Origin: Candidatus Omnitrophota bacterium
GTDB lineage: Bacteria; Omnitrophota; Gorgyraeia; B26-G9
DNA: 64,000 bases
NCBI GenBank assembly: GCA_043826565.1
Contig: JBDRPX010000034.1
Coordinates: 1,096-65,095 of the forward strand
Direction of reading: 5' to 3'
The notes below the pieces were generated by a model. That model saw nothing but the letters and a program-made list of their open reading frames with translations. It was not told the origin of the DNA and did no database searches. The position numbers and the translations under genes were made by a program. Shown here one piece after another: positions 3,221-32,330 of the stretch. Every line of letters starts with the position of its first letter. The first letter of the stretch is position 1.

Positions 3221-5110
3221 ATGTTTAAGATTTTAAAATTATACCTTGAGCAAAATTTAAGCCCGGAAAAACTTTTCACAGAACTTGTCGAATTCGGGTA
3301 TGAACGAACCGGAAACATATCGCAAAAAGGTGAATTTGCCGGCCGCGGCGATATTATAGATATTTATCCGATCAATTATGAAAATCCCGTACGTATTGAA
3401 ACCGAGTTTGACAAAATCACAAAAATATTTTCTTTTTCAGCCATCAGCGGCAAAAAAGAACAAGGACAAAATCCGCTGATTATTCTGCCGCATAAGACAT
3501 TCTCTTCTGCTGTTACCGCCGGGCGATTATCCATAAACAAATTTGAAGAACTGGAGAAAGGCGATTTAGTTGTTCATGTTGATCACGGGATCGGTAAATA
3601 TTTAGGGATCACAGATCTTAAGGGTAAACCGCATATAAAAATTGAGTATGCGGAAAAGGATAAACTCTACGTACCCGTAAAACAAAAAAATCTTCTGCAA
3701 AAATATATCGGGTTTACCGGGAACTCTCCCCGTCTGCATAAACTCGGCGGAAAAATCTGGCAGAATACCAAAACAAAAACAAAACAGGGTGTTACCAGCT
3801 TTGCTTTAGACCTATTAAAAATACAGGCAAAACGTGCCGCTCTTTCCGGCTATGCTTTTCCTAAAGATACAGACTGGCAAAATGATTTTGAAAAAAAATT
3901 CCCTTATCAGGAAACTCCGGATCAGCTAACTGCCAGTGAAGATGTTAAGCAGGATATGGAGTCATCCAAACCCATGGACCGGCTGCTTTGCGGTGATGTC
4001 GGTTATGGAAAAACAGAAGTAGCTTTTCGGGCGGCCTTTAAAGCTCTCATGGATAATAAGCAGGTGGCCATGCTCGTGCCGACAACAATCCTCACGGAAC
4101 AGCACTATCATAATTTCACCGAACGCGTCCGGGACTTCCCGGTAAATGTACAAATGCTCAGCCGCTTTAAAAAAGCCTCCGAACAGGATGAGATCGTTAA
4201 AGATTTAAAAAAAGGAAAAGTTGACATCGTGATCGGCACACACCGCCTTTTGTCCGATGATATCCGGTTCAAAAATTTAGGCCTGATCATTATCGACGAA
4301 GAACAACGCTTCGGGGTAAAAGCAAAAGAAAAATTAAAACATTTAAGAGAACTGGTCGATGTCCTCACACTAACCGCGACACCTATCCCCCGCACTTTAT
4401 ACATGTCTCTTTTGGGGGTTAAAGATATGTCAACCATAAATACTCCTCCGGAAAAACGTCAGCCTATTGAAACGTTCGTGTGTGTATATGACGAAGAAGT
4501 GGTGCGGAATGCTTTGCAAACCGAAATCGAAAGAAAAGGGCAAGTCTATTTTATCCACAACCGGATAAAAGATATTCAGACAATTCATGAAAAAGTAAAA
4601 AATCTTGTTCCCCAAGCCCGCGTTGCCATCGGACACGGCCGCATGCATGAAAAAGACCTCGAGCAGGTAATGATCGACTTTATCGAACATAAAATCGACA
4701 TTTTAATATCAACAACCATAGTTGAATCCGGGCTCGACATTCCTAATGCCAACACATTAATTGTCAATAACGCGCATAATTTCGGCCTGGCCGATCTTTA
4801 TCAACTGAGGGGAAGAGTCGGCAGATTCGACAGAAAAGCCTATGCTTATTTTCTTACTCCCAAGCACGCAACCTTCAATCCGGAAGCAAAAAAGCGCCTT
4901 AAATCAATACAAAAATTTACCGCCTTAGGCTCAGGATTTAAAATTGCCATGGAAGACCTGGAAATCCGCGGTGCCGGTAACCTGCTCGGTGAAAAGCAGC
5001 ATGGCTATATAATATCCGTAGGTTTTGATTTCTATTGCCAGTTACTCTCCGGCGCCATTGATCAACTGAAAAAAGCAGAAATCAGAAGTCAGAAAACAGA
5101 TAACAGATAA
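3221..5110 (+). CDS. mfd: Transcription-repair coupling factor, short form; retains the RNAP-interaction domain and SF2 helicase core but lacks N- and C-terminal modules
   Basis: GEFAGRGDIIDIYP is a UvrB-homology / Mfd D2 remnant. VVHVDHGIGKYLGI...LYVPV is the CarD/TRCF RNAP-interacting domain. The helicase motifs CGDVGYGKTEVA, DEEQRFGV and QLRGRVGR follow. At 629 aa it is far shorter than the roughly 1150-aa E. coli Mfd, and there is no room upstream (an 87-nt gap after fhs). Confidence 0.75.
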   Translation: MFKILKLYLEQNLSPEKLFTELVEFGYERTGNISQKGEFAGRGDIIDIYPINYENPVRIETEFDKITKIFSFSAISGKKEQGQNPLIILPHKTFSSAVTAGRLSINKFEELEKGDLVVHVDHGIGKYLGITDLKGKPHIKIEYAEKDKLYVPVKQKNLLQKYIGFTGNSPRLHKLGGKIWQNTKTKTKQGVTSFALDLLKIQAKRAALSGYAFPKDTDWQNDFEKKFPYQETPDQLTASEDVKQDMESSKPMDRLLCGDVGYGKTEVAFRAAFKALMDNKQVAMLVPTTILTEQHYHNFTERVRDFPVNVQMLSRFKKASEQDEIVKDLKKGKVDIVIGTHRLLSDDIRFKNLGLIIIDEEQRFGVKAKEKLKHLRELVDVLTLTATPIPRTLYMSLLGVKDMSTINTPPEKRQPIETFVCVYDEEVVRNALQTEIERKGQVYFIHNRIKDIQTIHEKVKNLVPQARVAIGHGRMHEKDLEQVMIDFIEHKIDILISTTIVESGLDIPNANTLIVNNAHNFGLADLYQLRGRVGRFDRKAYAYFLTPKHATFNPEAKKRLKSIQKFTALGSGFKIAMEDLEIRGAGNLLGEKQHGYIISVGFDFYCQLLSGAIDQLKKAEIRSQKTDNR

Positions 5111-5207: not shown

Positions 5208-6182
5208 ATGTTTAAACAAACTCTCCTATTAATCATTATTTTAACAGTATTTTTCGGCCAAGATCATGTGCAGGCACAATTTACCGAAAAAATACTGGCG
5301 GTAGTCAACGGGGAAGCAATAACCCAAACCGATGTTGACGAAATCCTTGCGCCGATCTATCTCCAATATAAAAGTTCCTATCAGGGCCCGGCGCTTATAA
5401 AAAAAATGGAGACTGCTAAAACGGATATTTTAAATCAGCTTATTGAAGATAAACTTCTCCTGCAGCAAGCGCTAAAGCAGGAGCTTACGGTAGACGAAAA
5501 AGAGATCGACCAATTAGTTAAGAAACTTGAAAGCAATTTTCAAACCGCAGAAGAGTTTGAGAATATACTAAAAACCCAGGGAATCACCTTAAGCGATCTA
5601 AAAAAAAGATATAAAGAGCAGCTGCTGATTAAGAAAGTCGTCGGCAAAGAAATATTAAGCAAAATACTCATCTCTCCTAAAGAAATCTCTGCGTATTATG
5701 ATCTCCATAAGGAAGATTTCAAAGTCCCCGAACAAGTCAAACTAAGAAATATCTTTATTGAAACATCCAATGTCGCGGAAGAAAATTTGGAAATTGAGAA
5801 AAAAGTAAAAGATACATACGAGCAGTTAAAGAACGGCGTGGAATTTGTCGAGCTGGTAGAAAAATATTCCGAAGCACCTAATGTCGTTGATGCCGGAGAA
5901 ATGGGATTTATGAAACGCGGCAGTATGCGCGAAGAAATCGAAAACGCGGTTTTTGATTTAGAACCGGGTAATTTCACCTCTCCGATAAAAACCGCGTCCG
6001 GATATTATATCTTTAAAGTAGAAGGAAAAAAAGAAGCGCAGATCCAGCCGATGGAAAAGGTTCAGAATGAAATCCGCAATGCTATATTTCAAGAGAAGTC
6101 CAAACAGAAACTTAAAAAATGGATAGATGAATTAAAAGAATCAACCTTAATTGAGGTAAAAAAAGATGAAAAAAAACGCTAG
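5208..6182 (+). CDS. surA: SurA-like periplasmic chaperone / parvulin-type peptidyl-prolyl isomerase
   Basis: Signal peptide, a SurA N-terminal domain, and a parvulin PPIase domain (GEMGFMKRGSM...SGYYIFKV). It sits in the conserved surA-pdxA-rsmA arrangement. Confidence 0.75.
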   Translation: MFKQTLLLIIILTVFFGQDHVQAQFTEKILAVVNGEAITQTDVDEILAPIYLQYKSSYQGPALIKKMETAKTDILNQLIEDKLLLQQALKQELTVDEKEIDQLVKKLESNFQTAEEFENILKTQGITLSDLKKRYKEQLLIKKVVGKEILSKILISPKEISAYYDLHKEDFKVPEQVKLRNIFIETSNVAEENLEIEKKVKDTYEQLKNGVEFVELVEKYSEAPNVVDAGEMGFMKRGSMREEIENAVFDLEPGNFTSPIKTASGYYIFKVEGKKEAQIQPMEKVQNEIRNAIFQEKSKQKLKKWIDELKESTLIEVKKDEKKR

Positions 6183-7218
6183 AATAGGAATAACCCTGGG
6201 AGATCCGGCCGGGATTGGAACAGAGATAACTTTAAAAGCATTAAAAGACAAAAAATTACGGGCATCCGCTAGTTTCGTGCTTATCGGAGACTATAGTAAT
6301 GTCGTACATACACAGCGTCAACTTGATATGTCGCTTAACTATCACATCCTTTCGGATATCGGACGCCTTAATCTAAGCGATGAGTTAATAAACTTCGTTA
6401 ATCTCGGCAATATCACATTTAATATCCCTTTTGGAAAAGTTGACGAACGTTGCGGCAAGGCAGCCTATGAATACATTAATATGGCTTGTCTTTTACTCCG
6501 CTCACATAATAACCTCGATGGTTTGGTTACCGCTCCCATTAACAAGGAAGCCATGAACCTGGCCGGATTTAAGTACCAGGGACATACCCAGCTTCTGGCG
6601 CAGCGTTTTAATGCCCGCTATGTAAGGATGATGTTCGCGGCTGAACAAATGCGTGTGGTTCTCGTTACCATACACATACCGCTTAAAAATGTCCCTGGAT
6701 TAATAACAAAAAGAGAAATACTGGACACTATTTTTGCCACACATAGAGCAATGAACATACATTTTAAAATCAAACGGCCTAAAATTGCGGTTTGCGCTTT
6801 AAACCCGCATGCTTCGGAAGACGGTTTATTCGGGACTGAAGAAAAAGAACATATTATTCCGGCAATAGCAAAAGCCCGGTCGCAAAAAATAAAAGTCGAA
6901 GGCCCGGTTCCCGCGGACATTGCTTTTTGGAAAGCAAAACAAGGCGAATATGACGCGGTTATTGCCATGTATCACGATCAGGCGTGTATTCCGTTTAAAA
7001 CTTTATATTTTGACAAAGGAGTTAATGCCACTCTCGGACTGCCTTTCGTACGCACCTCACCTGATCATGGAACTGCTTTTGATATCGCCGGTAAAGGAAA
7101 AGCCGACCCTACGGCAATGAAGGAAGCGATCAAGCTGGCCGTGGAAATGGCTTCAAATATGCCGCGCAAGCGCAAGAAAAAGAAAGTATATGTCCCAACC
7201 ATCAGCCGTTCTCGCTAA
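6166..7218 (+). CDS. pdxA: 4-hydroxythreonine-4-phosphate dehydrogenase
   Basis: PdxA motifs ITLGDPAGIG and SPDHGTAFDIAGKGKADP. Confidence 0.85.
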   Translation: MKKNARIGITLGDPAGIGTEITLKALKDKKLRASASFVLIGDYSNVVHTQRQLDMSLNYHILSDIGRLNLSDELINFVNLGNITFNIPFGKVDERCGKAAYEYINMACLLLRSHNNLDGLVTAPINKEAMNLAGFKYQGHTQLLAQRFNARYVRMMFAAEQMRVVLVTIHIPLKNVPGLITKREILDTIFATHRAMNIHFKIKRPKIAVCALNPHASEDGLFGTEEKEHIIPAIAKARSQKIKVEGPVPADIAFWKAKQGEYDAVIAMYHDQACIPFKTLYFDKGVNATLGLPFVRTSPDHGTAFDIAGKGKADPTAMKEAIKLAVEMASNMPRKRKKKKVYVPTISRSR

Positions 7219-8038: not shown

Positions 8039-9716
8039 AACTGCCGGTCATAATCTCATTCTGTAACCCGAAGAAAGGCACCAAATCCAACACAATACTG
8101 CTTTGCACCATATCTTCAGTAACTAAGCCGCTTTCTAAAACTATCTTGCGCAGATACCGGTCCCATCTTACCTGCAATTCCTCATCAATAAATTTAAAGC
8201 CGCTGCTCAGGTAAAATAGTATTGCTTTAGAACTAAGTCCGTCCGGATTTGCTATTTGCCAACTGGACATCCTGACTTTTTCTGCTCCTAGAACTGTCCG
8301 GACCATTTCCAAAAATGCGCGAAAAGCACTTTTACTTCGGCTGCCGTGATGACGGTATTCTTTAAAAACATGAAAAGTAAGCACTGCTGTTTTCGGCTCG
8401 TTAGATATCAAACCCAACTCTACACTTCCATAACCAATAACTTCATCATTATGCATAACCGCCAAATAGTATGCTTCCGGGTCATAAACTCCAGGATATC
8501 CCTCATCCTGCCCAAGTAATATTGTTTTAACATCGTCTTTACCCTCAGCGATATAAACATGATTAGCATCCACATCCAATGCTGAGTTAAGTATTGATCT
8601 GTTACGATCCTCTAAGGCAGTTGCCAGATCATCCGCTAATCTCCTTGCCGATAAATCCCCGGCTTTTTTCACAGTAACCTTAGAAATCATATTATTATCG
8701 ATATTGATCGATGCCCGCGATGCTAAATTCTCAATCAATGTTCCGGTAAACAGTGCCGCCTGATGCGGATTAATATGCAGGGGAACTCCTAAATAATGAC
8801 GGCTTAACTCTGAACTATTGATAAAAAAACACACCTCGCTGCGTTCACAAACCGATATTATCGGCGGCGCCATTTGCTGAAAACTGTCTTTAGCTTTGTA
8901 CTCATCCATTTCGGCAGCTGTCCCCACAATAATATCAATATCCAGATCGGTAACTCCTCCGTTAACCGGAGAACTCTCCAGCTCTCTGAGTCCCAATATT
9001 GTTTCCGGAATATTAACATGCTTCGTTTTCGCATTATCCGGCGGTCCTAAGCGGTTTATTTTAACCAAATGGCTCGCCATCCCTGTAGTGACCAAATATC
9101 CCAGATAATCTGCCGGGCTCAATTTTGAAATACCGAATTCAATTTCTTTCTGCCAATCACAATTTTGTTTACGGTGAAGCGGTTTGTTCTGATGCGGCCC
9201 GAAATCTCCGTGCGCGTCAAGATGACGCCACTCTACCCCGCCGCGATCAATAATCTCCTGGGCTTTTTCCCGATAATGTTCAAAGAAAAAAGAATATGAC
9301 ATATTATGCTGGCCGCCCCAATAGATCTTTTTATTATTCGCAAGCGTTATCACAACATAATACTCTCCGCCGACTTTATATTTCGTGCCGTTCAAATAAA
9401 CTTCCAGCACCGGATAAATAACTGCCTGTCCCGGTTTTTCAAAATCAAACTGTTTCTGTTCGATAACCGCGTCAGAAAAAATAAATTCCTTATCAATCTT
9501 AATAACAAAATCCTCTTCAACCAAAGGTCTGGGAATAGAATCACTGTTGTATTTAGGGAGAAGATCATCTAAGGCATTGAAAAAACTTTTCTTAAGCAAA
9601 ACCTGCTCAATATTTATTGAAGGAGATAATTTATCTGTAGAAACAGGTCCGGCAAATAAATTTGCCGGTATCGATAGAACTAATATTATGAGGATTATTT
9701 TTTTTAATAATTTCAT
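8031..9716 (-). CDS. Secreted protein with C-terminal GNAT acetyltransferase fold; member of the VQxFL-leader / LSP / [AS][IL]-COOH family
   Basis: Likely start at the internal ATG (MKLLKKIILIILVLSIPANLFA signal peptide). The mature N-terminus is GPVSTDKLSPSINIEQVLLKKSF. The C-terminal roughly 110 aa resemble a GNAT domain (VIGYGSVEL...HGSRSKSAFRAFLEMV). The tail is ...TGSSI. Confidence 0.6.
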   Translation of the reverse strand: MKLLKKIILIILVLSIPANLFAGPVSTDKLSPSINIEQVLLKKSFFNALDDLLPKYNSDSIPRPLVEEDFVIKIDKEFIFSDAVIEQKQFDFEKPGQAVIYPVLEVYLNGTKYKVGGEYYVVITLANNKKIYWGGQHNMSYSFFFEHYREKAQEIIDRGGVEWRHLDAHGDFGPHQNKPLHRKQNCDWQKEIEFGISKLSPADYLGYLVTTGMASHLVKINRLGPPDNAKTKHVNIPETILGLRELESSPVNGGVTDLDIDIIVGTAAEMDEYKAKDSFQQMAPPIISVCERSEVCFFINSSELSRHYLGVPLHINPHQAALFTGTLIENLASRASINIDNNMISKVTVKKAGDLSARRLADDLATALEDRNRSILNSALDVDANHVYIAEGKDDVKTILLGQDEGYPGVYDPEAYYLAVMHNDEVIGYGSVELGLISNEPKTAVLTFHVFKEYRHHGSRSKSAFRAFLEMVRTVLGAEKVRMSSWQIANPDGLSSKAILFYLSSGFKFIDEELQVRWDRYLRKIVLESGLVTEDMVQSSIVLDLVPFFGLQNEIMTGSSI

Positions 9717-9744: not shown

Positions 9745-12700
9745 TTATATCGCTTGCTCAATAACTTCAAAACTATAACCATGTTCCATTCCAGTTCTAT
9801 CCCCATGAGAAACAGTTTCAATATTAGCTATAAATTGCTGCCTTATCGAATCCGAAGGAATAACATCATCCATTTCTACCGAGGGAACTCCTTCCAAAAG
9901 AGAAAGTAAATTCCTTATACGGGAGATCACACCCTGAAAAGCCATGGCAGAATCACCGTTTTTTTCTGTTCTTATATTTGTGTCGGCAATCCCGATAAGC
10001 GTACGCTGTAACAGCGGTTCCAAACGAGCTTTTAAAATCGGCAGTTCATAAGCTGAATAACTATTAAAGGTCACGTCCGCATTTACCCAGCTTGTATAAG
10101 TATACGCCAGCTGAGCGTTTCTTCGCAACGGCCATTGCTGGACAATATCAACTACTTTTCTGCCCAAATTTACATGGCTAAGTATATGCCGCATAAAACG
10201 CAGATCCAATGATGTCAATGGACGGTTTCCGGATAATTTAAAATTCGGCGCAGTATTCACGAAAACACGGTAAAGCTGTTCATCTTTTAAAACTCCGGAT
10301 TTTCCGGCGATCTCATCGGATAAAGCATAATCCCCTTCGATCACATACAGATCATCATTTTCCAGAGTTATTGTTTCCCTGACAAATTCTCCGTCTTTTC
10401 TGACCACTACATGCAATACCTTAATATCCGGATCTAAAATCCGGCGAATAATATCCTTCATCCGGATGACCCGGGCATTATATATCTCTTCCTGGTTAAG
10501 CTCTTTTTCCTCCTGAAGAAAATCTGTATACTGCCTTAACAGCATATCAATATGGATCATCTTTACTTTTCTGCCTTTTTCCTTTAAATCCTGAGCTACC
10601 CTTTTGGAAAAAGATATTTTTCCGCTGGTAGTCGGCCCGCTGACCAAAACAAAACCTCTTTTTCCCGGCGAAAATTCTTCATCAATACTATCTACAATAC
10701 GCCCGATCTCTTGGGTATGCTTTTCCTCGTTCTTTCGGATCAGTTCACCCAGTTTATTTTCCCGGCAAACCTGCTGTAAATGCTCCAGCGTACGCGGCTG
10801 AAGCCCCAGCTCACCATATCCCCGGTAAGGAATTCTGCCGGTCTTAGAAAATATCCTCTGCAGCCGCGGACTGCGGGCAATTTCCGCATCAATAACTCTG
10901 GCCATACTCAAAATAAAAGCCGCCTGACGCAGATCCGTCTTATATTTTTTAGCGATTTCTAAAACTGTGATCGTTTCGCTTTCAATCCGCTCTTCAAGCA
11001 TTTTATCCACACTGGTTTCTTCCCAGGCCTTACCTTCAATATTCTGCAGCCATTCAAAATAAGAAACCGTAACCCCTCCGACATTTGCTAAAATATCCGG
11101 AATGATCAGAATACCTTTATTTCGCAAAATCGGATCCGCTTCCGGAGTAGTCGGATTATTCGCTAATTCCAGAAGAATATCACAATTAACATCTGCGGCA
11201 TTAGCTATAGTGATCTGATTCTCTATCGCCGCCGGCACTTTTACATTTGTATGCACTTTCCAGAAAAGCGACTGTTTTTCTTCTTCCTGTTGTAAAATTT
11301 GATACACCCAATCCTGATAATCACCAAATCTTTCATCGATCACAAGTTCGGAAGCATTTTTTAACTGCCGGAATTTCAAGGTAACCTTTCCGCCTTTTTT
11401 ACTGACATATCCGTTTTCGATCAGATTTGCCAAAAGCTCCTTTGCATCCGAAGTAATTCGGGAAAAATCCGTTTCCGCCACACTGCCTTTTAAAAATTGC
11501 GTTCCGGTCCTGTCCAGAAAATCCTGGGAAACTGTACTAAACTCGTATAGTCGGTCATCGGACTTTTTACCCAGCACTTCCATTAATTCTTCCAAAGGAA
11601 TACCCTGAGGATTATAAAGCGTTCCGGTATGGTCCTGCCATAAATTCAACTGCGCTCCGGCAGTATTAATTGAACACGCGTAATACTCTCCCACATTACC
11701 TCCGCCCTGAACTCCCATGGTCATTTCCCGAATATCTTTACTAAACAATGCCTTTGCCCTCGCACTCAATTGACGGCCAACCGCATCACTGGAAACATCT
11801 ATTAACTGCGGAAAATGATTCAACATTGACCGCAAAGCTAAAAATCCGCCAAACCCGGTAGCTTTAGTCCTGCCTTTTGATCCGCCTTTCTCCACCGGCT
11901 TACCGGTTATAACTCCCAGTTCCGAGGCATCCAGAATGCCGAACATATCCGCGCGCTTAAGTCTTAAATAATAATTTAAATATGGTGTTTCTAATGGATC
12001 TTCGGAATTTTTAGATTTTACTTTCAGCAGCCCTCTTTCCATTCTCTTATCATCTATTTTACGGCTCCTGGCCTGGATTCTTAAATATTCATCCACAAAA
12101 ACAGCCATCATATCTGCTCCTGTACCCACATCCGGTGCCGGTACATCAATATAAGGTCCCACTGCTCCTTTTTTGGTAAGCTCCCGGGCAAAACCCCGGA
12201 CAATATATGCTTTAAGAGTGTCTGCCTTTTCTGCATAATCCGCGCTTTCCTGTAAGATCTTCTTAATTTCCTGATTTAAAAATTCTCTTAGTCCCGTATC
12301 TTCACCAGTACTGGTATAATGCATCAGTTCACCGAGAGCTTCTAAAAGAACCTCCTGGATATCCCGCCCCAGACTGTCTATAAAACCTTTCCTATCTTCT
12401 ATCTCCTGCCCGATAGCCTGAGAAAATCGCCTTAGTTTTTCTGCTTTGTCTTTTAATCCTTTAGCCTCTTTTTCATACCCTGAGATAACATTATTAACTT
12501 TATCTTCGATAACAACATCGCCTTTTCCTCCGCCGTAAGGGATACCGATCACGGCATTTTTTACCGTCATCAATGTCGCCAAACCCGCAGCTGTAGCCTT
12601 TGCCTCTTCCAATGTTTCTCCATGAACAAGAAGCCAGCGGAATCCGCCTTTAGACGGCCCCAAAGCATCACTTTGCGAAACACGAAATCCCCAAACTTTT

Positions 12701-23642: not shown

Positions 23643-24005
23643 TTAAACTATTTCTTTTTCAACTGCAGAAATCAAACCATACAAAGTTCTTGCTAAAGAT
23701 TGGAATAAATTTTCAATATTTTTAAAAATCAAATCTTCTACATACCCCAATTCATTTGCTAATTGAATCAAACACTCAACTTCTGCCATAGAACCTCTCG
23801 CTATATATAAAAAGTTTAAATAATCCTTTTTATGCTGCCTACTAGCTCCTTCTGCAATATTAGCCATTATAGAAACCGCTGCTCTTCGCAACTGAGAAGT
23901 CAATCCATACATTTCATCTTTAGGAAAGTTTTTAGTTGCCTGATAAATAAAAAGCACCAATTTGCTTGCTACTTCATAAGCTTTTATTTTTTTATAATCT
24001 CTCAT
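23643..24005 (-). CDS. Four-helix-bundle protein of the 23S-rRNA-intervening-sequence (IVS) protein family
   Basis: MRDYKKIKAYEVASKLVLFIY...LRRAAVSIMANIAEG is characteristic of the TIGR02436 / IVS family. It is flanked by imperfect inverted repeats (gaccatagactatagacc at 23622-23639; ctatagtcaatggtcc at about 24027-24042). Confidence 0.6.
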   Translation of the reverse strand: MRDYKKIKAYEVASKLVLFIYQATKNFPKDEMYGLTSQLRRAAVSIMANIAEGASRQHKKDYLNFLYIARGSMAEVECLIQLANELGYVEDLIFKNIENLFQSLARTLYGLISAVEKEIV

Positions 24006-24069
24006 ACTATTAATCTTTTTTAGTCTATAGTCAATGGTCCTGCATATCCCCACATTGACACATCATTGT

Positions 24070-25374
24070 CTATTGTCTAGACCTATATAATTTTTTCTGA
24101 AACTGCAACAGCACCTGATTTCTCTGTTTTTTAACCTCTACCGCAACATCATCTTCCAACCCCGCGGCTTTGGTATGCGGCCGGGGTGAATATTTAAAAA
24201 TATAAGCGGCGTCAAATTTAATTTCTTTAAATAAATTAAAAGTATCCTCAAAATCAGCATCGGTTTCTGTAGGAAACCCTACCATAACATCTGTCGTCAG
24301 TTTTAAACCCGGAACTATGTCCCGGCCTTTTTTTACTAATTCAATATAATGCTCCCGGGTATAACCGCGGTTCATCAGCTTTAAAATTTTATTTGATCCG
24401 GACTGCACCGGTAAATGCAGGAATTTTTTACATTTATCTAATTCCGCCATAGATTTAAACATTTCTAATGATGCGTCTTTAGGATGCGAAGTCACAAAAT
24501 CAAACTTCTTTAAACCTTTAATATCATTCACCATCCTCAGCAAATCAGTAAAGGTTACAGGTTTCATGTTACAAGTTTCATGTTTTTTATTTTTTTGCTT
24601 TTCTACCTGTGACCTGTAACTTGCAACCTGGGACTGGTAGCTATTCACATTCTGCCCCAGCAATGTGATCTCTTTTACTTCTTTATTAACCAATCCTTTG
24701 ATTTCCTTTAGGATATCCTCTGCCGGACGGGAACGCTCCCTTCCTCTTACATATGGCACAATACAGTATGAGCAGAAATTATTGCACCCTTCGGCAATGA
24801 TTACATTACAATGGGATTTATCCGCGATATACTCGGTATTATAAACAACCTCATCCCGCTGTTCCTTGCCCACAGCCAGGCCTTTGGAAAATTCTGTAGT
24901 CATATCCGCAAGCAGTCCGGGTATGGAATTAATATTATTCGGGCCTACGACCAGATCGATCAATGGCGATCTCGCGAACGCGGATTGCTGATAGTTCTGC
25001 GCCATACATCCGATCAAACCCACAATAACTTTTTTAGCTTCAGGCTTCAGGCTACAGGCTTCAGGGGCAAAACCATTAGTATTTTTTTTATACTCTTTGT
25101 TTTTAAAACTTGTAGCTTGCAGCTTGTGGCTTGAAGCTTTTAGCTTTTTAATTCTGCCGATCTCAGACCACACCTTATCCTCGGCCTTTTGCCGCACCGA
25201 ACAGGTATTAAACAAAATCACATCCGCCTTTGCCGGAGAATCCACCAGTTTATAGCCGTGCTTGATCAGCATCCCCGCAACTAGCTCAGAATCCCTGTCG
25301 TTCATCTGGCAGCCGAAAGTCCTGATGTAGATTTTTTTAGGCATATTTTTGTAAGTTTTTGATTCTTTTGACAT
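24070..25374 (-). CDS. MiaB/RimO-family radical-SAM methylthiotransferase carrying in-frame repeat-derived insertions and lacking a clear TRAM domain
   Basis: N-terminal MTTase domain (IYIRTFGCQMNDRDSE...FNTCSVR), and a radical-SAM CNNFCSYC motif. Two low-complexity insertions (KLKASSHKLQATSFKNKEY...PEACSLKPEAKK and SYQSQVASYRSQVEKQKNKKHETCNMKPV) are encoded by 7-mer tandem repeats. Confidence 0.7.
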   Translation of the reverse strand: MSKESKTYKNMPKKIYIRTFGCQMNDRDSELVAGMLIKHGYKLVDSPAKADVILFNTCSVRQKAEDKVWSEIGRIKKLKASSHKLQATSFKNKEYKKNTNGFAPEACSLKPEAKKVIVGLIGCMAQNYQQSAFARSPLIDLVVGPNNINSIPGLLADMTTEFSKGLAVGKEQRDEVVYNTEYIADKSHCNVIIAEGCNNFCSYCIVPYVRGRERSRPAEDILKEIKGLVNKEVKEITLLGQNVNSYQSQVASYRSQVEKQKNKKHETCNMKPVTFTDLLRMVNDIKGLKKFDFVTSHPKDASLEMFKSMAELDKCKKFLHLPVQSGSNKILKLMNRGYTREHYIELVKKGRDIVPGLKLTTDVMVGFPTETDADFEDTFNLFKEIKFDAAYIFKYSPRPHTKAAGLEDDVAVEVKKQRNQVLLQFQKKLYRSRQ

Positions 25375-25422
25375 TGTGATTTTCTTTCTGTTTCTGAAAG
25401 CAAAAAACTGTTATAACCTGTT

Positions 25423-26355
25423 TTATTTCGATTTTTCTAAAACGCTTCTTAATTCATCAACTGCTTTCTTATGTTTGCCAACACTCATCTTCGATAAGTT
25501 AACTAGTTTCCATTTAACAGCTGGCATATCTTTTGCTCTTTCAACGCCTAACAGATCCCATTTGGGTTTTTGTTCCTTGAAAGACAAAAGAAAGGTGCGT
25601 TCATCATCAGTTAACTTCTTATTAATCTCTTTGATTAGTGTTTTTCTAACACTTTCCAATTCCTCATATTTTACCCCAAATGATGTCATCCCCGAGAACT
25701 CATTTTCAAAAACCAATTTCATGTCTTTAAGGTTCGGAGACAGCAATTCAGAAATTGGACGATTATGACTGATCAGATAAACAAGGAACGCTTTACGTAC
25801 TTCGTTTGTAATGCCTTCGTTGTGAAGCAATAACATTATATCAAAAATATCTCGAGGGTGTTGACGATCAAGTGCCGCACAAATCTTAGATCCATAAAGC
25901 TCAGCAAACGACAATGTCTTAATAGTTACGAATTTCTCAAAAATATCTTCCGCTTTTTTGCAAATATCTTTTTCTTCACAATTAAATAACGCTCCGCGAA
26001 TAACTTGATTCGGCTCGATCTTGACGATTGCGTTTCGCCTTTTAACAAAAAGCTTTGTTGTAAAATTATTAGGAGTTTCTATTTTCTCTTCAATTTGTAC
26101 AGCTGGTAAACTTGTAGAAATTCGCCCGGATATCAACTTCAACTTCTCACTTATCTCTTGCAACGTTTTCTCTCGAGAACCAACATTTAAATAAGTAAGA
26201 TCAATATCAACAGAAAGGCGCGGCATATCCTGCACAAAGAAGTTAATTGCCGTGCCACCATGCAAAGCAAAGCTGGGATCTTCAGCCATATACGGAAGAA
26301 TCGATATCAAAAGATCTGCTTGTTGATAAAATAAATTTTTATCCATATCTTTCAT
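25423..26355 (-). CDS. abiEii: AbiEii/AbiGii-family nucleotidyltransferase (type IV toxin-antitoxin / abortive-infection toxin)
   Basis: HGGTAINFF...SVDIDLTY matches the nucleotidyltransferase motifs of the DUF1814/AbiEii family. The AbiEi-like gene follows directly. Confidence 0.7.
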   Translation of the reverse strand: MKDMDKNLFYQQADLLISILPYMAEDPSFALHGGTAINFFVQDMPRLSVDIDLTYLNVGSREKTLQEISEKLKLISGRISTSLPAVQIEEKIETPNNFTTKLFVKRRNAIVKIEPNQVIRGALFNCEEKDICKKAEDIFEKFVTIKTLSFAELYGSKICAALDRQHPRDIFDIMLLLHNEGITNEVRKAFLVYLISHNRPISELLSPNLKDMKLVFENEFSGMTSFGVKYEELESVRKTLIKEINKKLTDDERTFLLSFKEQKPKWDLLGVERAKDMPAVKWKLVNLSKMSVGKHKKAVDELRSVLEKSK

Positions 26356-27120
26356 TTATTTAGGAACGACTATTTTATATTTACTATTATAATGACCATT
26401 TTTAGCAAGAGACCTCTTCCCTGTTCCAAAGCTAACCTTTTCAAGATTTAGTTTATTAACCCACGCATGATTATGCTTCTCAGCTAAATACATGAAAAGT
26501 CTTTTTGCCTTAACTGAACCGCATTTTTCTAAGAGATTCTGAACCATATGTGGACGTAGCGTTACAAGACCAGACAATATATGATCTAATTCATCAAAAG
26601 ATTCCCGTATAGGAACATCATAACAAAACTCTAATGCCGCTCTTTCAGGTGAAGATATTTTGATATCGTAATTACCTGCATTATATGTTGTAAGACCCAA
26701 GGATATATCTTTTCCAAAAAGATCGGTCATTACATAACGGATTTCCACTTCCCATTTATAGCTTTTAAACCATGCCGGAAGCTTTTCGTTTTTAGAACCG
26801 AAAAGTACTATTTTTGATTGCTTTAAATTTGCCGGGAGGTAATGTGCGTTTCCTTGTAGTTGGAGAGCAGTTTTCCCCGAGGGATGAACAGACATGTTTA
26901 AATGTGATTGTAAAGCATAAAGTCCACTACTCCACTCAACATTTTCACCAGCCCTTTTAAAAGCACCTTGGCCTATTCGTTCTATCCAGCCAGTCTTAAC
27001 GTAAGTATCAGCTAATTGACGATATACACCCTGCCTCTCAAGGCCAGCGTAAACAACAACAGTATTTTTAGGCCAATTCTTAAGCAAATTGTTTATTATA
27101 CTTCTATTTTGTCTACTCAT
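26356..27120 (-). CDS. abiEi: AbiEi-family antitoxin / transcriptional regulator
   Basis: The N-terminal winged-helix-like region and its size match the AbiEi_4 family. Stop and start are adjacent to abiEii (26355/26356). Confidence 0.65.
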   Translation of the reverse strand: MSRQNRSIINNLLKNWPKNTVVVYAGLERQGVYRQLADTYVKTGWIERIGQGAFKRAGENVEWSSGLYALQSHLNMSVHPSGKTALQLQGNAHYLPANLKQSKIVLFGSKNEKLPAWFKSYKWEVEIRYVMTDLFGKDISLGLTTYNAGNYDIKISSPERAALEFCYDVPIRESFDELDHILSGLVTLRPHMVQNLLEKCGSVKAKRLFMYLAEKHNHAWVNKLNLEKVSFGTGKRSLAKNGHYNSKYKIVVPK

Positions 27121-27354
27121 AATAGACAGTTTAGCATAATTTTAAACTAATGTCAAGGTTTTCTTGCAGAATTTTATGGTTTGAAAAGATGCTATTTTGT
27201 CAATCTATTATAGACATCTAGGAATAATTATAAACCCTGAACCCTAGCGCCATATACAGTTCAGTAACATGAGTTTACAATTCGAGAATATTTGCTAATA
27301 CCCATTTTATTACACCCACACATTAACTAAAAAACAATTACTGTTTTGCTATCC

Positions 27355-27440
27355 CTGAAGGTCATTGGTCATCCGAAAGTTCGGATGAAGAAAGTCTTTT
27401 TCATAATGTGCCCATTATATACGGAAGGAATTATTATCCA
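27355..27440 (-). promoter_or_regulatory. Conserved promoter plus 11-codon sORF module, copy A (sORF 27369-27404, MKKTFFIRTFG*)
   Basis: The reverse strand reads TTGGAT-N16-TATAAT, then 9 nt, then ATG AAA AAG ACT TTC TTC ATC CGA ACT TTC GGA TGA. It is about 85% identical to copy B at 32238-32330, and the differences preserve the peptide. Confidence 0.4.
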
Positions 27441-27455
27441 ATAAAACTGCTTTTA

Positions 27456-29420
27456 CTAATATCTTAAAGCCTCTATGGGATTTAACTGCGATGCCTTACG
27501 GGCGGGCCAAAGGCCAAAACCTAAGCCTACAGCAATTGAAAAGCCTGTAGCGAGGATAATAGAAAAAAGTGAAACTCTCGTTGTCCAACCGGCAAAAATC
27601 GATACAAGAAAAGCCATGCCCATGCCAAAAATAATACCTAAAATTCCACCAGTGAAAGTCATAACTACTGATTCAATAAGAAACTGCATCATTATATCTT
27701 TCTTACGTGCCCCTAAAGCCTTGCGCAATCCTATTTCCCTGGTACGTTCGGTTACCGAAACAAGCATAATATTCATAATGCCTATTCCGCCCACAAGAAG
27801 AGAAATAGCCGATATAAACCCCAAAAGCATGGTCATCGTTTTTGTCATACCCTGAAGCGCTTTCTGAATCTCAGCCATATTCATGATATTAAAAGATTCT
27901 TCCTGATCTTTTTTAAGGCGATGACGATTGATTATAAGATTACTAATAGCTTCTTTAGCCTCATCCATAAAATCAATATCATCTATTTCCACATCAATAG
28001 AATCAACATATTCTTTACCCAATAATCGATACATCGCCGTAGTAACAGGAATTATTACCACATCGTCCTGATTCCCCATCGGGCCTCCCGCGCCTTTTTC
28101 CGGCAATACTCCAATCACTTTAAAATTTACACGATTTATTTTAATAGTTTCCCCAACAGGGTCATCATAGCCAAAAATTTCTTTTGCAACGCTAAGCCCG
28201 AGCAAAGCTAACTTCTTACGACTCCTTACTTGTTCCTCTGTAAAAAAACTTCCCGCGATAGGCACCGATGATTTCATTTCTGCGTAACCGGTTCCCGTCC
28301 CTTGAATCCGTGTATTCCAATTTTTATTTTTGTATACTACCTGTCCTCGTCCCGAGACTGAAGGAGACACTCTTCTTACTTGTGGAATTTTTAATATTTC
28401 CTCTGAGTCCTTAATAGTAAAACGAGTTATTGATCCTGACTCTAAAGATACCCCTCCCATTCGACGTGCACCGGGACGAATAGTCAGGATGTTTGTCCCC
28501 AAAGAAGAAAGTTCATCAGAAATAGATTCTTTTGCTCCTTGACCTAATGCCAGCATAGCAATTACCGCTGCCACACCAATAAGAATTCCCAGCATAGAAA
28601 GAAAAGACCTCAGCTTATTGGAAAAAATAGCCCGGAACCCCTGCTGCAAATTATCCGTAATTTCAGTCATACGAAAACCATTATTCTGACCGGGGTCCTT
28701 ACTATTAAAAAACTCTTTTTCCGGCATTTTCGCATCTTTTTGAAATTCATTATTATTCATCTTATCGGAAACAATCTTTCCATCGCGCATATAAATAATC
28801 CGTTTTGCTTTCTCGGCTATTTCGAGTTCATGAGTAACCATTACAATTGTCTTACCTTCCTGATTCAGTTCTTTCAAAATCGCAATGATTTCTTTTTCGC
28901 TTTTTGTGTCTAGGTTTCCGGTAGGCTCATCGGCAAAAATAATCAAAGGATCATTCACTAAAGAACGAGCAATAGCTACCCTCTGCTGTTGTCCACCGGA
29001 AAGTTCATTCGGCCGATGAAGCGCCCGGTCGGATAACCCGACAGCTTCTATTTTTTCAGCGGATTTTTGTTTTAAGGCTCTCTTACCCCCATAGATCAAA
29101 GGCAGTTCCACATTCTCAATAGCAGTCAACCGGGAAAGTAAATGAAACTGCTGGAAAACAAAACCAGCCAAACGATTCCTTAATTCAGCCAAGTCATCGT
29201 CAGTAAATCCGGACACATCTCTTCCTCTTAATAAATACATTCCTGAATCCGGCCTATCCAAAAACCCCAAAAGATGAAGAAGTGTAGATTTTCCGGAACC
29301 GGATGGCCCCATGATAGCAATAAATTCCCCTGAAGAAATCTTCAAGGACACATTCCGTAAAGCCTGAACTTCTACTTTCCCCATGGCATAGTTTTTACTA
29401 ATATTTTTTAATTCGATCAT
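27456..29420 (-). CDS. macB: MacB-type ABC transporter (fused ATPase plus FtsX-like permease)
   Basis: Walker [18 protein letters not shown] and Walker B in the N-terminal half; a large periplasmic domain and 4 TM helices of FtsX type in the C-terminal half. Start taken at MIELKN, which has an upstream AAAAGG. Confidence 0.8.
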
Positions 29421-29433
29421 TTTGACCTTTTGA

Positions 29434-30393
29434 TTATTTCTTTTTCCTGTCAAATTTCGGTATAAAAGGGTTCCTCCCAGATTCCTTGTTTTCGGGAAGC
29501 AGATATTTTTTACTTGTTATTACTATAATATCACTTGCTGTTACCCCGGAAAGAACCTCAATATTCTCATCGTCAGAAACCCCTAGTTCAACCTTTTGTT
29601 TAACGATCTTATGTTTATCATGTTTTACTAAAACAAATTTTTCATCTTTATCTTCTATAACCGCTTTAACCGGGATACATAAAACATTATCTTTACTTTT
29701 GGTAACTATATCCACATTCGCGCTCATGCCCGAACGAAAAACATCAGGAATATCAGCCGGTAAAATATCAACCTCATAAATAGTAACATTGTTTAGAACT
29801 GTAGCTTCATATGATATATGATCAACTTTCGCTTTAACTTCTATTTCAGGGTAGGCATCCAAACTAACTATAGCCTCATAACCAATTTTTACCTCTCCGA
29901 TATCTGTCTCATCAACATCTGCTTTTACTATGAGACGATCCGATAAAACAATAATAGCATCATTAGCAACTACTGTCTGCCCCGGCTCAACTGCTCTCAC
30001 AATCACCACTCCATTGATTGGCGCAATTAGCGGAGTGGCATTATAAACTTTTTTCCAGTACCCCAATTCTTCCTTGTTGTTAAGATATGCTGCATCTAAA
30101 AGCGTTGCCCTTTCTGTTGAACTCATTAAAGCAAGGATATCACCGGTTTTGACTTTCTCCCCTTCTTTAACTAAAATTTCTTCTATTCTGCCGCCTATCG
30201 GCGGTTTGATCTCCAAACGATTCTGAGGTTCAACCTCTCCTGTTGTTGATATTATAGTTCGGATATTTCCATGCCCAGGCACTATTTCCCGGGCAGATTC
30301 CGGAAAATCATCTTTTTTACCCTGTTTCATAAATATAATTACTATAATAAAAGCAATAGCTAATAAACCAATATACCTCTTTTTATTTATCAT
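29434..30393 (-). CDS. macA: HlyD/MacA-family periplasmic adaptor (membrane fusion protein)
   Basis: N-terminal TM anchor, lipoyl/beta-barrel adaptor topology, and genetic linkage to macB and the outer-membrane factor. Confidence 0.75.
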   Translation of the reverse strand: MINKKRYIGLLAIAFIIVIIFMKQGKKDDFPESAREIVPGHGNIRTIISTTGEVEPQNRLEIKPPIGGRIEEILVKEGEKVKTGDILALMSSTERATLLDAAYLNNKEELGYWKKVYNATPLIAPINGVVIVRAVEPGQTVVANDAIIVLSDRLIVKADVDETDIGEVKIGYEAIVSLDAYPEIEVKAKVDHISYEATVLNNVTIYEVDILPADIPDVFRSGMSANVDIVTKSKDNVLCIPVKAVIEDKDEKFVLVKHDKHKIVKQKVELGVSDDENIEVLSGVTASDIIVITSKKYLLPENKESGRNPFIPKFDRKKK

Positions 30394-31654
30394 ATTCCAA
30401 TATTCCTCCTCTTGCCTGAATCCAGTTAGCTTCGGTAATTAACATGCTTGCCCGAGAATCCAAAAAAGATTTCTTAGTGGATACCAAATTATCTTCTATG
30501 ATTATCCAGTCATTGAATGATATAAGACCGGCTGAATACTGAGCATTGGCTATTTTTGCCCGTTTTTCGGCAGCTTCAAGGTATTTTTGCCGCACAGAGA
30601 TATTATCTATTGCGTCCTGGAATTCTACCCAGGTTTTTTCCAATGTAAAAAGAATGCCATCACGCCCGCTTTGTTCATCAGCCTTAGCTTGATTTAATTC
30701 AGCTTTGGCTTTTGAAACTTTAGCTATACGGCTTCCTCCTTCAAATAAGGGAAAAGACAAACTTATTCCAGCTGACCATTGTTCTGCGCTCGGAGGCCAT
30801 GAAGAATCGCTCTTCCCTAAAGATCCATCCAAATAAACCTGAGGGGAAAAATCAGCCTTAACCGACTTAACCCCAAACCGAACTGCTTCTCTTTTAGCAA
30901 TAAGTTCCTTGAGCAAAGGAGTATTATCCGCTAAATAGTCAAAATCAGGTTTTACTCTATCAATTTCTGTAATTTCAAAATCACCAATGACTTTAATCGG
31001 CGCAAACCTCTTTCGGCCTAATTCCTTCATTAATTGTCTTTGCGCCAGCGTAATATTTCTTTTTGCCTGCATAACCTCAAGCTCCGCCTGCGCTAAATCC
31101 GCCTCAGCAGTTAATAAGGAACCTTCGTGTTCTCGGCCCGCCTCATATCGCAATCTTACAAGCTCTAAATTCTGGTTTCTGCGTAATGCGATATCCTCGG
31201 TTATAGACAAGAGTGCCTGAGCCCTGAGAAGCCCGGCAAAAGCCGTACTTAAATTCAGTCTTACATTAGAAGAGGTCACTGCATAGTCATATTGTGATGC
31301 CTTTATATTTTCTGAGGCAGCTCCAACATCATTGGATGTTTTAAAGCCGTCGAATAATAACTGTTTTCCGGTTACCCCATATGAATAAGTATCGCTTGTA
31401 CTCCTTGTTACACCGGTATCTACTCCTGTTCTCCTGCTATTGACCTCGCTGCTGATCTGAGGCAATGTAGAACTTCGAACAATTTCCTTATCTGCCCGAA
31501 ACTGTTTTAATTTTCCTGCTGCTGAAATAAGATCCGGATGGTTCTTAGCCGCCTCAGAAACACAATCATTCCATGTCATGCCATCCTCTGCATAAGCATC
31601 AGGCAAAAGAAAACTCAAAAATAATATTGTCATAGCGCCTTTTACAATTATCTT
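30383..31654 (-). CDS. TolC-like outer-membrane efflux factor
   Basis: Signal peptide (MKIIVKGAMTILFLSFLLPDAYA), two repeated alpha-helical/beta segments typical of the OMF family, and an operon with macAB. Confidence 0.7.
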   Translation of the reverse strand, partial: KIIVKGAMTILFLSFLLPDAYAEDGMTWNDCVSEAAKNHPDLISAAGKLKQFRADKEIVRSSTLPQISSEVNSRRTGVDTGVTRSTSDTYSYGVTGKQLLFDGFKTSNDVGAASENIKASQYDYAVTSSNVRLNLSTAFAGLLRAQALLSITEDIALRRNQNLELVRLRYEAGREHEGSLLTAEADLAQAELEVMQAKRNITLAQRQLMKELGRKRFAPIKVIGDFEITEIDRVKPDFDYLADNTPLLKELIAKREAVRFGVKSVKADFSPQVYLDGSLGKSDSSWPPSAEQWSAGISLSFPLFEGGSRIAKVSKAKAELNQAKADEQSGRDGILFTLEKTWVEFQDAIDNISVRQKYLEAAEKRAKIANAQYSAGLISFNDWIIIEDNLVSTKKSFLDSRASMLITEANWIQARGGILEYDK

Positions 31655-31721
31655 CATCGACAGATACCTCTTTATTTCCAATATCTAAAATAGTTCAAGT
31701 TCTGGGAGAAATATGATAGTG

Positions 31722-31970
31722 CTAACTTTTATTTTTCTTTTTGATCTCTTTTTTCATTGTAGTTAAATGCCCCTCTAAAAGTCCTAAAAACTTATTAAAT
31801 TCTTTTTCAGGAATAAGACTAATCACTTTTTCATGATGTGGTGGCCCGGAAATAATCACAACACTATCTCCTGATTTAATACCCAGCGCCTTCCTTGCTT
31901 CTGCAGGAATAACTATTTGTCCTTTTGTCCCCACTAATGCCTTGCCAAAAAACTTCGGTGAGCCTTTCAT
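31722..31970 (-). CDS. AbrB/MazE/SpoVT-family DNA-binding protein (antitoxin-like)
   Basis: GQIVIPAEARKALGIKSGDSVVI is a looped-hinge (swapped-hairpin) motif. No partner toxin is visible. It has its own TTGACA-N17-TATGCT promoter at about 32030-32060. Confidence 0.55.
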   Translation of the reverse strand: MKGSPKFFGKALVGTKGQIVIPAEARKALGIKSGDSVVIISGPPHHEKVISLIPEKEFNKFLGLLEGHLTTMKKEIKKKNKS

Positions 31971-32237
31971 TCTTTCCTCCTTTATTTATCATGTGTCCTC
32001 AAACAAAGCTAAGTATGACTTGTATGAAATGTACTACCTTACATACAAAGCATACCCTATGGTCAAATAATTGTCAAGTACGTTTTATAATTTTTCCCTT
32101 TTAAGGGGGGCTTTGAGCGCAGGTAAGCGAAAACACGACGTGGTTGAGCCCGAGCTCTAGGGAGGGCGAACGGTATATTCAAGTCAATTCAGGTAAGAAA
32201 ATGTAAGAAAGGAAGGGTTTGAGCACTTTGTAGAGCG

Positions 32238-32330
32238 CAATCCAAGGGTCATCCGAAAGTTTTTATATAAAATGTCTTTTCCATAGTTTATTCATTATAT
32301 AATCTGAGAGGAATTTAGGCAAGCTTTATT
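32238..32330 (-). promoter_or_regulatory. Conserved promoter plus 11-codon sORF module, copy B (sORF 32249-32284, MEKTFYIKTFG*)
   Basis: The reverse strand reads TTGCCT-N17-TATAAT, then 9 nt, then ATG GAA AAG ACA TTT TAT ATA AAA ACT TTC GGA TGA. It is paralogous to copy A. Confidence 0.4.

Follow-up and report, generated by a model that had tools for sequence, protein, structure and literature searches.

Gene order and repeat elements

The window analysed here, a 64-kb stretch of Omnitrophota DNA, carries an intact miaB gene on its minus strand (24070..25374; Pfam UPF0004 and Radical_SAM) and, upstream of it on the same strand, two gene cassettes and two copies of a short repeat element. Read along the miaB strand, the first half of the locus consists of a gene for a 978-aa protein, copy 2 of the element (an attL-like junction between a native arm and an arm called P', both described below) and a cassette with AbrB, TolC, HlyD and MacB genes, and the second half consists of copy 1, an AbiEi-AbiEii cassette and an attR-like junction between an arm called X and the miaB body. 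All three sites are in direct orientation, and the ...ACTTTCGGNTG core is intact in each of them.

The cassette next to miaB (cassette A, 25423..27120) is a type IV toxin-antitoxin or abortive-infection pair, composed of AbiEi (254 aa, 26356-27120, minus strand) and AbiEii (25423-26355, minus strand), both assigned by Pfam; miaB is the next gene after AbiEii. Its GC content is 35.5-36%, against 40.5% for the window, and its AbiEi has homologues at 75-94% identity in several candidate phyla, compared with 64-69% for the best MiaB homologues from other organisms. The contexts of the AbiEi homologue P0273 show no link to miaB or to a large serine recombinase (LSR). As a separate observation, the ~115 nt upstream of abiEi (27123-27236, minus strand) contain GGTTTATAAT-type repeats and a TTGACA-17-TAAACT promoter-like site, and they are conserved before 80%-identical abiEi genes that stand in unrelated chromosomal contexts with no abiEii partner (L216-L225). 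This region is probably an AbiEi autoregulatory region.

The second cassette (cassette B, 27456..31970) sits between the two junctions and may be either cargo or native. It encodes, all on the minus strand and by Pfam assignment, an AbrB/MazE-like regulator of 82 aa (31722-31970), a TolC-like OEP (30383-31681), an HlyD-like adaptor (29434-30393) and a MacB-type ABC transporter (27456-29453); GC content does not separate this efflux cassette from the chromosome. Copy 1 of the element thus has the MacB gene upstream and the AbiEi gene 247 nt downstream, and copy 2 has the gene for the 978-aa protein upstream and the AbrB/MazE-like gene 277 nt downstream. The genes upstream of miaB are not conserved between lineages, making this region a synteny breakpoint in the clade. 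The window MiaB, taken from either start codon, had no exact match in a look-up, and the sole other assembly of the locus (L201, Logan SRR26275510) is 100% identical and has the same arrangement. On the other side of miaB, between it and a SPOR/TPR gene, we noted a 23S-rRNA-IVP or bAvd-like four-helix-bundle gene (23643-24053, minus strand) with a GC content of 31%; miaB and the SPOR/TPR gene are adjacent in L202, L208 and L209, and the four-helix-bundle gene looks like another small insertion.

Each element holds a 12-codon short frame (sORF) on the minus strand: sORF1 at 27369-27404 (ATG AAA AAG ACT TTC TTC ATC CGA ACT TTC GGA TGA, encoding MKKTFFIRTFG) and sORF2 at 32249-32284 (ATG GAA AAG ACA TTT TAT ATA AAA ACT TTC GGA TGA, encoding MEKTFYIKTFG). 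A -10 hexamer TATAAT ends 9 nt ahead of both start codons (27414-27419 in copy 1 and 32294-32299 in copy 2, minus strand). The -35 of copy 2, TTGCCT (32317-32322, minus strand), completes a TTGCCT-17-TATAAT promoter with 10/12 matches, the sole copy to pass our promoter scan; that of copy 1, TTGGAT (27436-27441, minus strand), is weak. Aligned over ~100 nt the copies are ~74% identical, and the pattern AAAAGACNTTNTNNATNNNAACTTTCGGATGACC, with 27 specified bases, occurs exactly twice in the window, at the two copies, and never in 100 shuffles of the window. Sequence, alignment and pattern therefore bear out the earlier note in its description of two shared minus-strand elements, and Pfam agrees with the flanking genes that it named. 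It also gave each element a sigma70-like promoter, of which the TATAAT 9 nt before both ATGs is borne out, the -35 of copy 1 being weak. Where it counted four codon differences between the sORFs we find six, three of them synonymous (ACT/ACA, TTC/TTT, ATC/ATA) and three conservative (K/E, F/Y, R/K).

No tRNA or tmRNA was found by a scan of the window, and an Rfam scan of 24-36 kb returned nothing relevant. Copy 1 contains a perfect 8+8 palindrome, CATCCGAA-CT-TTCGGATG (27370-27387, minus strand), formed by the codons for I-R-T-F-G; it is missing from copy 2 and from the other sites and is probably coincidental.

Homology of the elements to the start of miaB

MiaB-type methylthiotransferases begin with the peptide that both frames share, M[KE]KTF[FY]I[RK]TFG. 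The resident miaB, 2 kb farther downstream, contains …KKIYIRTFGCQMN… and its product reads MPKKIYIRTFGCQMN, with the UPF0004 domain starting at KIYIRTFGC (...MPKKIYIRTFGCQMNDRDSE). Both sORFs align with this gene codon for codon as far as the Gly, after which the TGC of the Cys codon is replaced by TGA. The closest homologues of the window MiaB are annotated MiaB proteins from Omnitrophota MAGs, and the N-termini of close homologues include MKKTFFLKTFGC, METFYIKTFGC and MKNTFYIKTFGC. When we scanned a metagenome collection with a degenerate DNA pattern for KTF[FY]I.TFG followed by TG, we obtained 121 matches at 120 loci, and 116 of the 121 run on as ...TFGC..N..D[ST] methylthiotransferases, with 2 more ending at contig ends; a scan of viral contigs for the peptide-level pattern gave no match. 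Beyond the point at which the homology breaks off, copy 2 is unrelated to miaB and copy 1 is weakly similar to it for about 8 codons, and both copies are, as their sequences read, fragments and not functional miaB genes. Recoding of the TGA, with selenocysteine at the Cys codon, was considered and rejected, given that copy 2 does not continue as MiaB and that TGA ends 3/30 long ORFs.

The promoter belongs to miaB as well. In three related genomes (L207, L208 and L209), which have no insertion and no recombinase nearby, this promoter stands at the same 9-nt distance from the same first codons, which lead into an intact miaB; these genomes represent the unoccupied attB. The left arm of copy 2 (B arm, 32250..32330, minus strand) corresponds to the native miaB promoter and first 11 codons, ending ...ACTTTCGGATG, and is identical to the uninterrupted L208 at 70/85 nt and to L207 at 65/85. 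The blastn matches of copy 2 to both genomes end exactly at base 32250, and its native-type match reaches as far as ...TTCGGATG. The left arm of copy 1 (27370..27441, minus strand) likewise consists of a miaB-type promoter and the first 11 codons, ends ...ACTTTCGGATG and breaks at the same position, with 56/85 nt identical to the native L208 arm; the copy 1 region has no blastn homologue among the comparison loci, so that its left arm is the more diverged. The two left arms are identical to each other at 57/85 nt, and copy 2 resembles the native arm of a different species (82%) more closely than it does copy 1.

LSR loci at miaB and the break point

In other relatives, an LSR gene (Resolvase, Recombinase and Zn_ribbon_recom domains) lies directly upstream of miaB (L001, L002, L169, L202/203/205 and L212-215), and L020 has an LSR remnant in this position. 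The 3' end of the LSR gene overlaps the miaB start, its last ~50 codons overlapping the element-borne miaB start in another frame; we refer to this ~160-180-nt stretch, made up of LSR C-terminal codons and the element-borne miaB start, as the X arm. A second copy of the X arm in LSR loci continues past the break as the P' arm, which in the recombinase frame encodes a tail, D(D/P)PW[IFL].LY[KR].[LAS]KPF..., conserved in nine sites. Many database LSRs of 568-583 aa carry this tail, and the 553-aa forms end at the miaB junction with ..S(A/V)R and a stop. Because P' encodes the LSR tail, the attP lies inside the recombinase's own 3' end. Past their tail-coding part, the P' arms share a GC-rich non-coding hairpin stretch, ..CACCGTTCGCC.C.GCTG..GCTCGCTGGGCCGCTCGCT..TACGATTCGGCT (L202:1100-1330, L210:11740-11907, L211:10330-10600 and window ~32100-32180 on the minus strand), with no Rfam match in the window. 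Homologues whose gene call opens at 'MN.RDSE' do not thereby reveal an LSR overlap: L209 and the window are called likewise and have no LSR.

The family comprises >120 clusters at least 63% identical, and those clusters with a named source come from MAGs labelled Omnitrophota/Omnitrophica, Nitrospirota, Elusimicrobia, Aureabacteria and Pseudomonadota. Its members are at most ~30% identical to the serine integrases of a phage collection, and viral contigs scanned for the LSR gave no match. The LSR islets of relatives measure 2-9 kb and carry type II and MmeI-type restriction-modification, SIR2-HerA, RES, HepT/MNT, DUF6036 and DUF4238 genes. Docking of this LSR family at the miaB 5' end is apparently widespread and undescribed; a literature search found no paper that names miaB as the target of an LSR, nor any that treats serine recombinases of Omnitrophota.

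Two other mobile gene arrangements were seen among these loci. One LSR island contains a diversity-generating-retroelement-like pair (RVT_1 and bAvd) and an IS110-family transposase (L210:981-2796 and 5954-6973), adjoining RES, HepT/MNT and DUF6036 toxin-antitoxin genes. In an Omnitrophota MAG (P0004; L206:987-1445 and 1336-2742), a Y1_Tnp gene of IS200/IS605 type overlaps a long N-terminal extension of miaB, MSGTKKNTPHFR..., which is common to P0005, so the start of miaB may be used by a second type of element as well.

LSR alleles occur in two states that differ at the break. P0128 (553 aa) and P0361 (575 aa) share residues 1-551 with 100% identity and diverge solely past the break, and so do P0134 and P0368 (100% identical over 551 residues), one member of a pair ending ..AR and the other continuing into the ..DPW.. 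tail. An identical P0128 LSR with its X arm is also found fused to one host miaB body in L212 and to a different one in L215. These pairs suggest that recombination at the break point is ongoing in relatives. In every LSR-bearing relative, moreover, an X arm flanks the recombinase module on either side, one inverted relative to the other, and the distal copy is always a full attP-like X/P' site in inverted orientation. The inverted arms are 100% identical over 157-178 nt in four lineages (L001:122-278 and 3661-3817, L169:5905-6071 and 8356-8522, L202:1388-1565 and 9819-9996, L213:8024-8201 and 11477-11654), and 91% and 76% identical in two others (coordinates L210:7351-7707 and 11477-11834, L211:6804-7147 and 10053-10414). 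A flip of the module would switch the LSR between tail-less and tailed forms and leave miaB undisturbed; the flip of the L212 module predicts exactly the tailed protein P0361. Segments flanked by inverted sites are present in L001, L169, L202, L210, L211 and L212, with L169 holding four sites of alternating orientation around three modules, and are not present in the window, where all sites are direct. The all-direct layout of the window, with its native arm, has no exact counterpart among the comparison loci, which counts against a role of LSR recombination in the window.

The window sites break where these loci break. Both copies are cut after ...ACNTTYGGNTG, inside the Cys codon of the TFGCQMN motif, and continue with ACC. 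One break base is shared by 18/18 aligned sites; that of both fragments is the break base of 8 attP-type and 5 attR-type sites in LSR loci, and the break is common to L169, L001, L202/203 and L210-L215. Element DNA past the break starts with A(C/G)C, so that TG(C/T) becomes the stop TGA, which closes both fragments as frames of 12 codons. A search for dyad symmetry did not single out a crossover dinucleotide.

Beyond the break, copy 2 continues with an element-derived right arm (P' arm, 32176..32249, minus strand) that begins at the A of the sORF TGA. It is identical to the attP-type site of L202 at 33/36 nt, the match amounting to 86% over 93 nt spanning the break, and its +1 frame still codes for the C-terminal tail of a recombinase, now orphaned (DDPWIALYKVLKPFLSYIFLPELT followed by a stop), with the tail-coding remnant spanning 32176-32253. 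Copy 2 is thus, on the evidence of these matches, a chimera of an attB-type left arm and an attP-type right arm with the switch at one nucleotide. The matching arm is found at miaB itself, whose present 5' arm (X arm, 25310..25407, minus strand) is element-derived, with codons up to ...ACTTTCGGCTG, and contains both candidate start codons (25374 or 25344). This arm matches the LSR-adjacent arm of L002 at 76/85 nt and that of L202 at 70/85, compared with 46-54/85 for native arms; by blastn it is 85-88% identical to the X arms of L002, L003, L202, L210 and L211, and its matches to attP copies end exactly at 25310. Resident miaB accordingly uses an element-supplied start (MSKESKTYKNMPKK...), the X arm being joined to the gene body at 25309 in an attR-like junction. 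At this site 98 nt of the X arm remain, the first ~70 nt having been lost.

Copy 1 is the weak point of the model. Its right arm (27334..27369, minus strand) starts ACC like the P' arms, and the next bases (ATGACCTTCAGGGATAGC) also resemble miaB codons 14-20 (M..RDS). It matches the P' arm of L001 at 24/36 nt and the window's own miaB at 22/36, and the LSR-frame tail is broken after 3 codons; the arm may be either a P' arm or a decayed continuation of miaB.

Origin of the elements and known integration systems

We interpret the two elements as displaced miaB 5' ends left behind at LSR-type cassette insertions, that is, as integration scars and not as a regulatory peptide, and we put the probability of this reading at about 85%. 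Each element would comprise a native-type promoter and the first 11 codons of miaB, whose start is probably leaderless. The break would be the crossover point of the LSR family, whose elements would integrate in the miaB 5' end and bring a replacement start. A tandem insertion at the regenerated miaB-proximal site could then have given the present order of junctions and cassettes; in copy 1, the efflux cassette would have supplied the miaB-mimicking left arm and the AbiE cassette the P' on the right. Loss of the recombinase gene, along with the first ~70 nt of the X arm, would have followed; with both gone, the array is probably frozen. This interpretation draws on the arm homologies, the common break, the empty sites, the LSR at the same site in relatives and the two states of the same LSR alleles, all of which we observed. 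Since neither an LSR gene nor a remnant was found in the 64-kb window (tblastn with two LSRs), we infer from the junction sequences that LSR recombination brought the islands into the window, and we also infer in what order events ran and that the recombinase disappeared afterwards. The window thus has an attL-type chimera in copy 2, a matching attR at 25310-25407 and no recombinase gene within its element, which would be either a recombinase-less remnant or dependent on a recombinase in trans. The stranded miaB promoters may read into the cargo.

Dependence in trans leads to another possibility, namely that the junctions are live sites of a cassette array served by an LSR elsewhere, in the manner of an integron or of SCC. 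The three modules and four sites of L169, the occurrence of the same LSR alleles in both site configurations, the modular and defence-rich cargo of relatives (RM, SIR2-HerA, RES, HepT/MNT) and the preserved ...ACTTTCGGNTG core at all three window sites are consistent with it. However, the X arm of the window is down to 98 nt, the right arm of copy 1 looks decayed and no alternative arrangement of the locus was seen, L201 being identical; we consider live sites unlikely.

A still less probable origin is that the elements are 5' pseudogene pieces of miaB generated by events that were not site-specific, through illegitimate recombination, replacement by homologous recombination following transfer from relatives, or local duplication, with no serine recombinase involved in this genome. 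In its favour, the window has no LSR, the right arm of copy 1 is as like miaB codons 14-20 as it is like P', and synteny within the clade breaks upstream of miaB. Against it, both fragments end at the very base used in the att sites of LSR loci, the attP right arm with which copy 2 goes on (33/36 nt) encodes the recombinase tail, the resident miaB start is an element-type arm, and the 74% identity of the copies is too low for a recent local duplication.

The reading to which the earlier note gave most weight, in which the sORF is a functional micro-peptide, leader or attenuator expressed from its own promoter and controlling the AbiEi and AbrB-like regulators, is largely refuted and retains hardly any credence: the promoter-like site with its ATG 9 nt past the -10, the synonymous or conservative differences between copies and the position of both copies upstream of DNA-binding genes speak for it, but native miaB has this peptide, promoter and 9-nt spacing, the frame closes at the point where element DNA takes over, 10 other contigs with 80%-identical AbiEi keep the proximal ~115 nt upstream and have no sORF element, each regulator has a TTGACA-type promoter-like site to itself, 250-280 nt downstream, the minus strand between sORF and gene (27121-27368 and 31971-32248) shows neither a terminator-like hairpin nor an Rfam match, and just two copies exist in the window. 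The peptide itself most likely has no function. An independently selected peptide, or a leader or attenuator for antitoxin-like regulators, is not what we find, given that peptide and promoter are those of native miaB and that an abiEi orthologue occurs with no sORF. The purifying selection that the note saw in the codons also has another source, the synonymous-biased differences being inherited from selection on MiaB, whose imprint the codon conservation is. Its further suggestion, the conserved end of a small mobile cassette, came close to the truth in that the elements are cassette or island junctions.

Returning to the integration-scar reading, it is tempting to extend it to the family as a whole, with the miaB start as the docking site of a widespread LSR family that flips its tail and module, defence cassettes that pile up there, and the window sORFs as array boundaries that would recombine if an LSR were supplied in trans. 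We regard this extension as possible and rather doubtful. In such a scheme, the attP in the LSR 3' end would overlap a mimic of the miaB start in another frame, recombination would give miaB a new start and swap the C-terminal tail of the LSR, flips between the perfect inverted 160-180-nt arms that bracket the recombinase module would alternate tailed and tail-less forms, and small defence cassettes would stack as an integron- or SCC-like array. The scheme would cover Omnitrophota and also MAGs labelled Nitrospirota, Elusimicrobia and Aureabacteria. More generally, the scar points to a large LSR family. Its members have in common a short target that is nearly universal in bacteria, the miaB codons for TFGCQMN, and a cargo of small defence and toxin-antitoxin genes in poorly studied candidate phyla. 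A self-altered C-terminus and inverted arms could bear on directionality in the absence of a separate excision factor, a question of interest for serine-integrase biology and genome-engineering tools. The analysis also removes a false lead: a sign of 'purifying selection' in a short ORF can mean no more than that a conserved gene has had its start cut off, and scars of this kind show exactly where an island begins or ends.

Several known systems share features with this locus. The CcrAB recombinases of SCCmec are LSRs that use one conserved housekeeping target and produce tandem cassettes with repeat junctions, including recombinase-less 'pseudo' cassettes. Their target is the 3' end of rlmH, where no replacement of promoter or start is needed, and their repeats measure ~15-20 bp; in the window the target is a 5' end, and the repeat comprises a promoter and 11 codons. 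In integrases of the SSV1 type, an archaeal tyrosine system, attP lies inside int, which is split in two on integration. Recombination thus alters the enzyme's own coding sequence in both cases, but the LSR loses only a 20-26-aa tail, replaced by ..AR and a stop.

SXT/R391 ICEs integrate in the 5' end of prfC and replace its start. Integration in the 5' end of a conserved gene with the start replaced is likewise described for dusA islands (Farrugia et al. 2015, PMC4482086). As at miaB, the target in both is a translation or tRNA-modification gene, the element gives it a new 5' end and the old 5' fragment is left at the far junction; the enzymes, however, are tyrosine recombinases, the target genes are others and the recombinase ORF does not overlap the target ORF. 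The serine recombinase of phage JC1 (Bcep22-like) integrates at the 5' end of rimO, whose product is a MiaB paralogue; in related Burkholderia prophages the integrase gene abuts or overlaps rimO after integration (PMC9144972). Here too the target of a serine recombinase is the set of first codons in a gene for a MiaB-family methylthiotransferase, although the gene is rimO and not miaB, the element is a 61-kb phage compared with the 2-9-kb islets described here, and the JC1 attP lies 41 bp upstream of the recombinase gene, in contrast to its location inside the 3' end of the LSR gene. Seen beside these systems, the window feature is an ordinary integration scar of a known kind.
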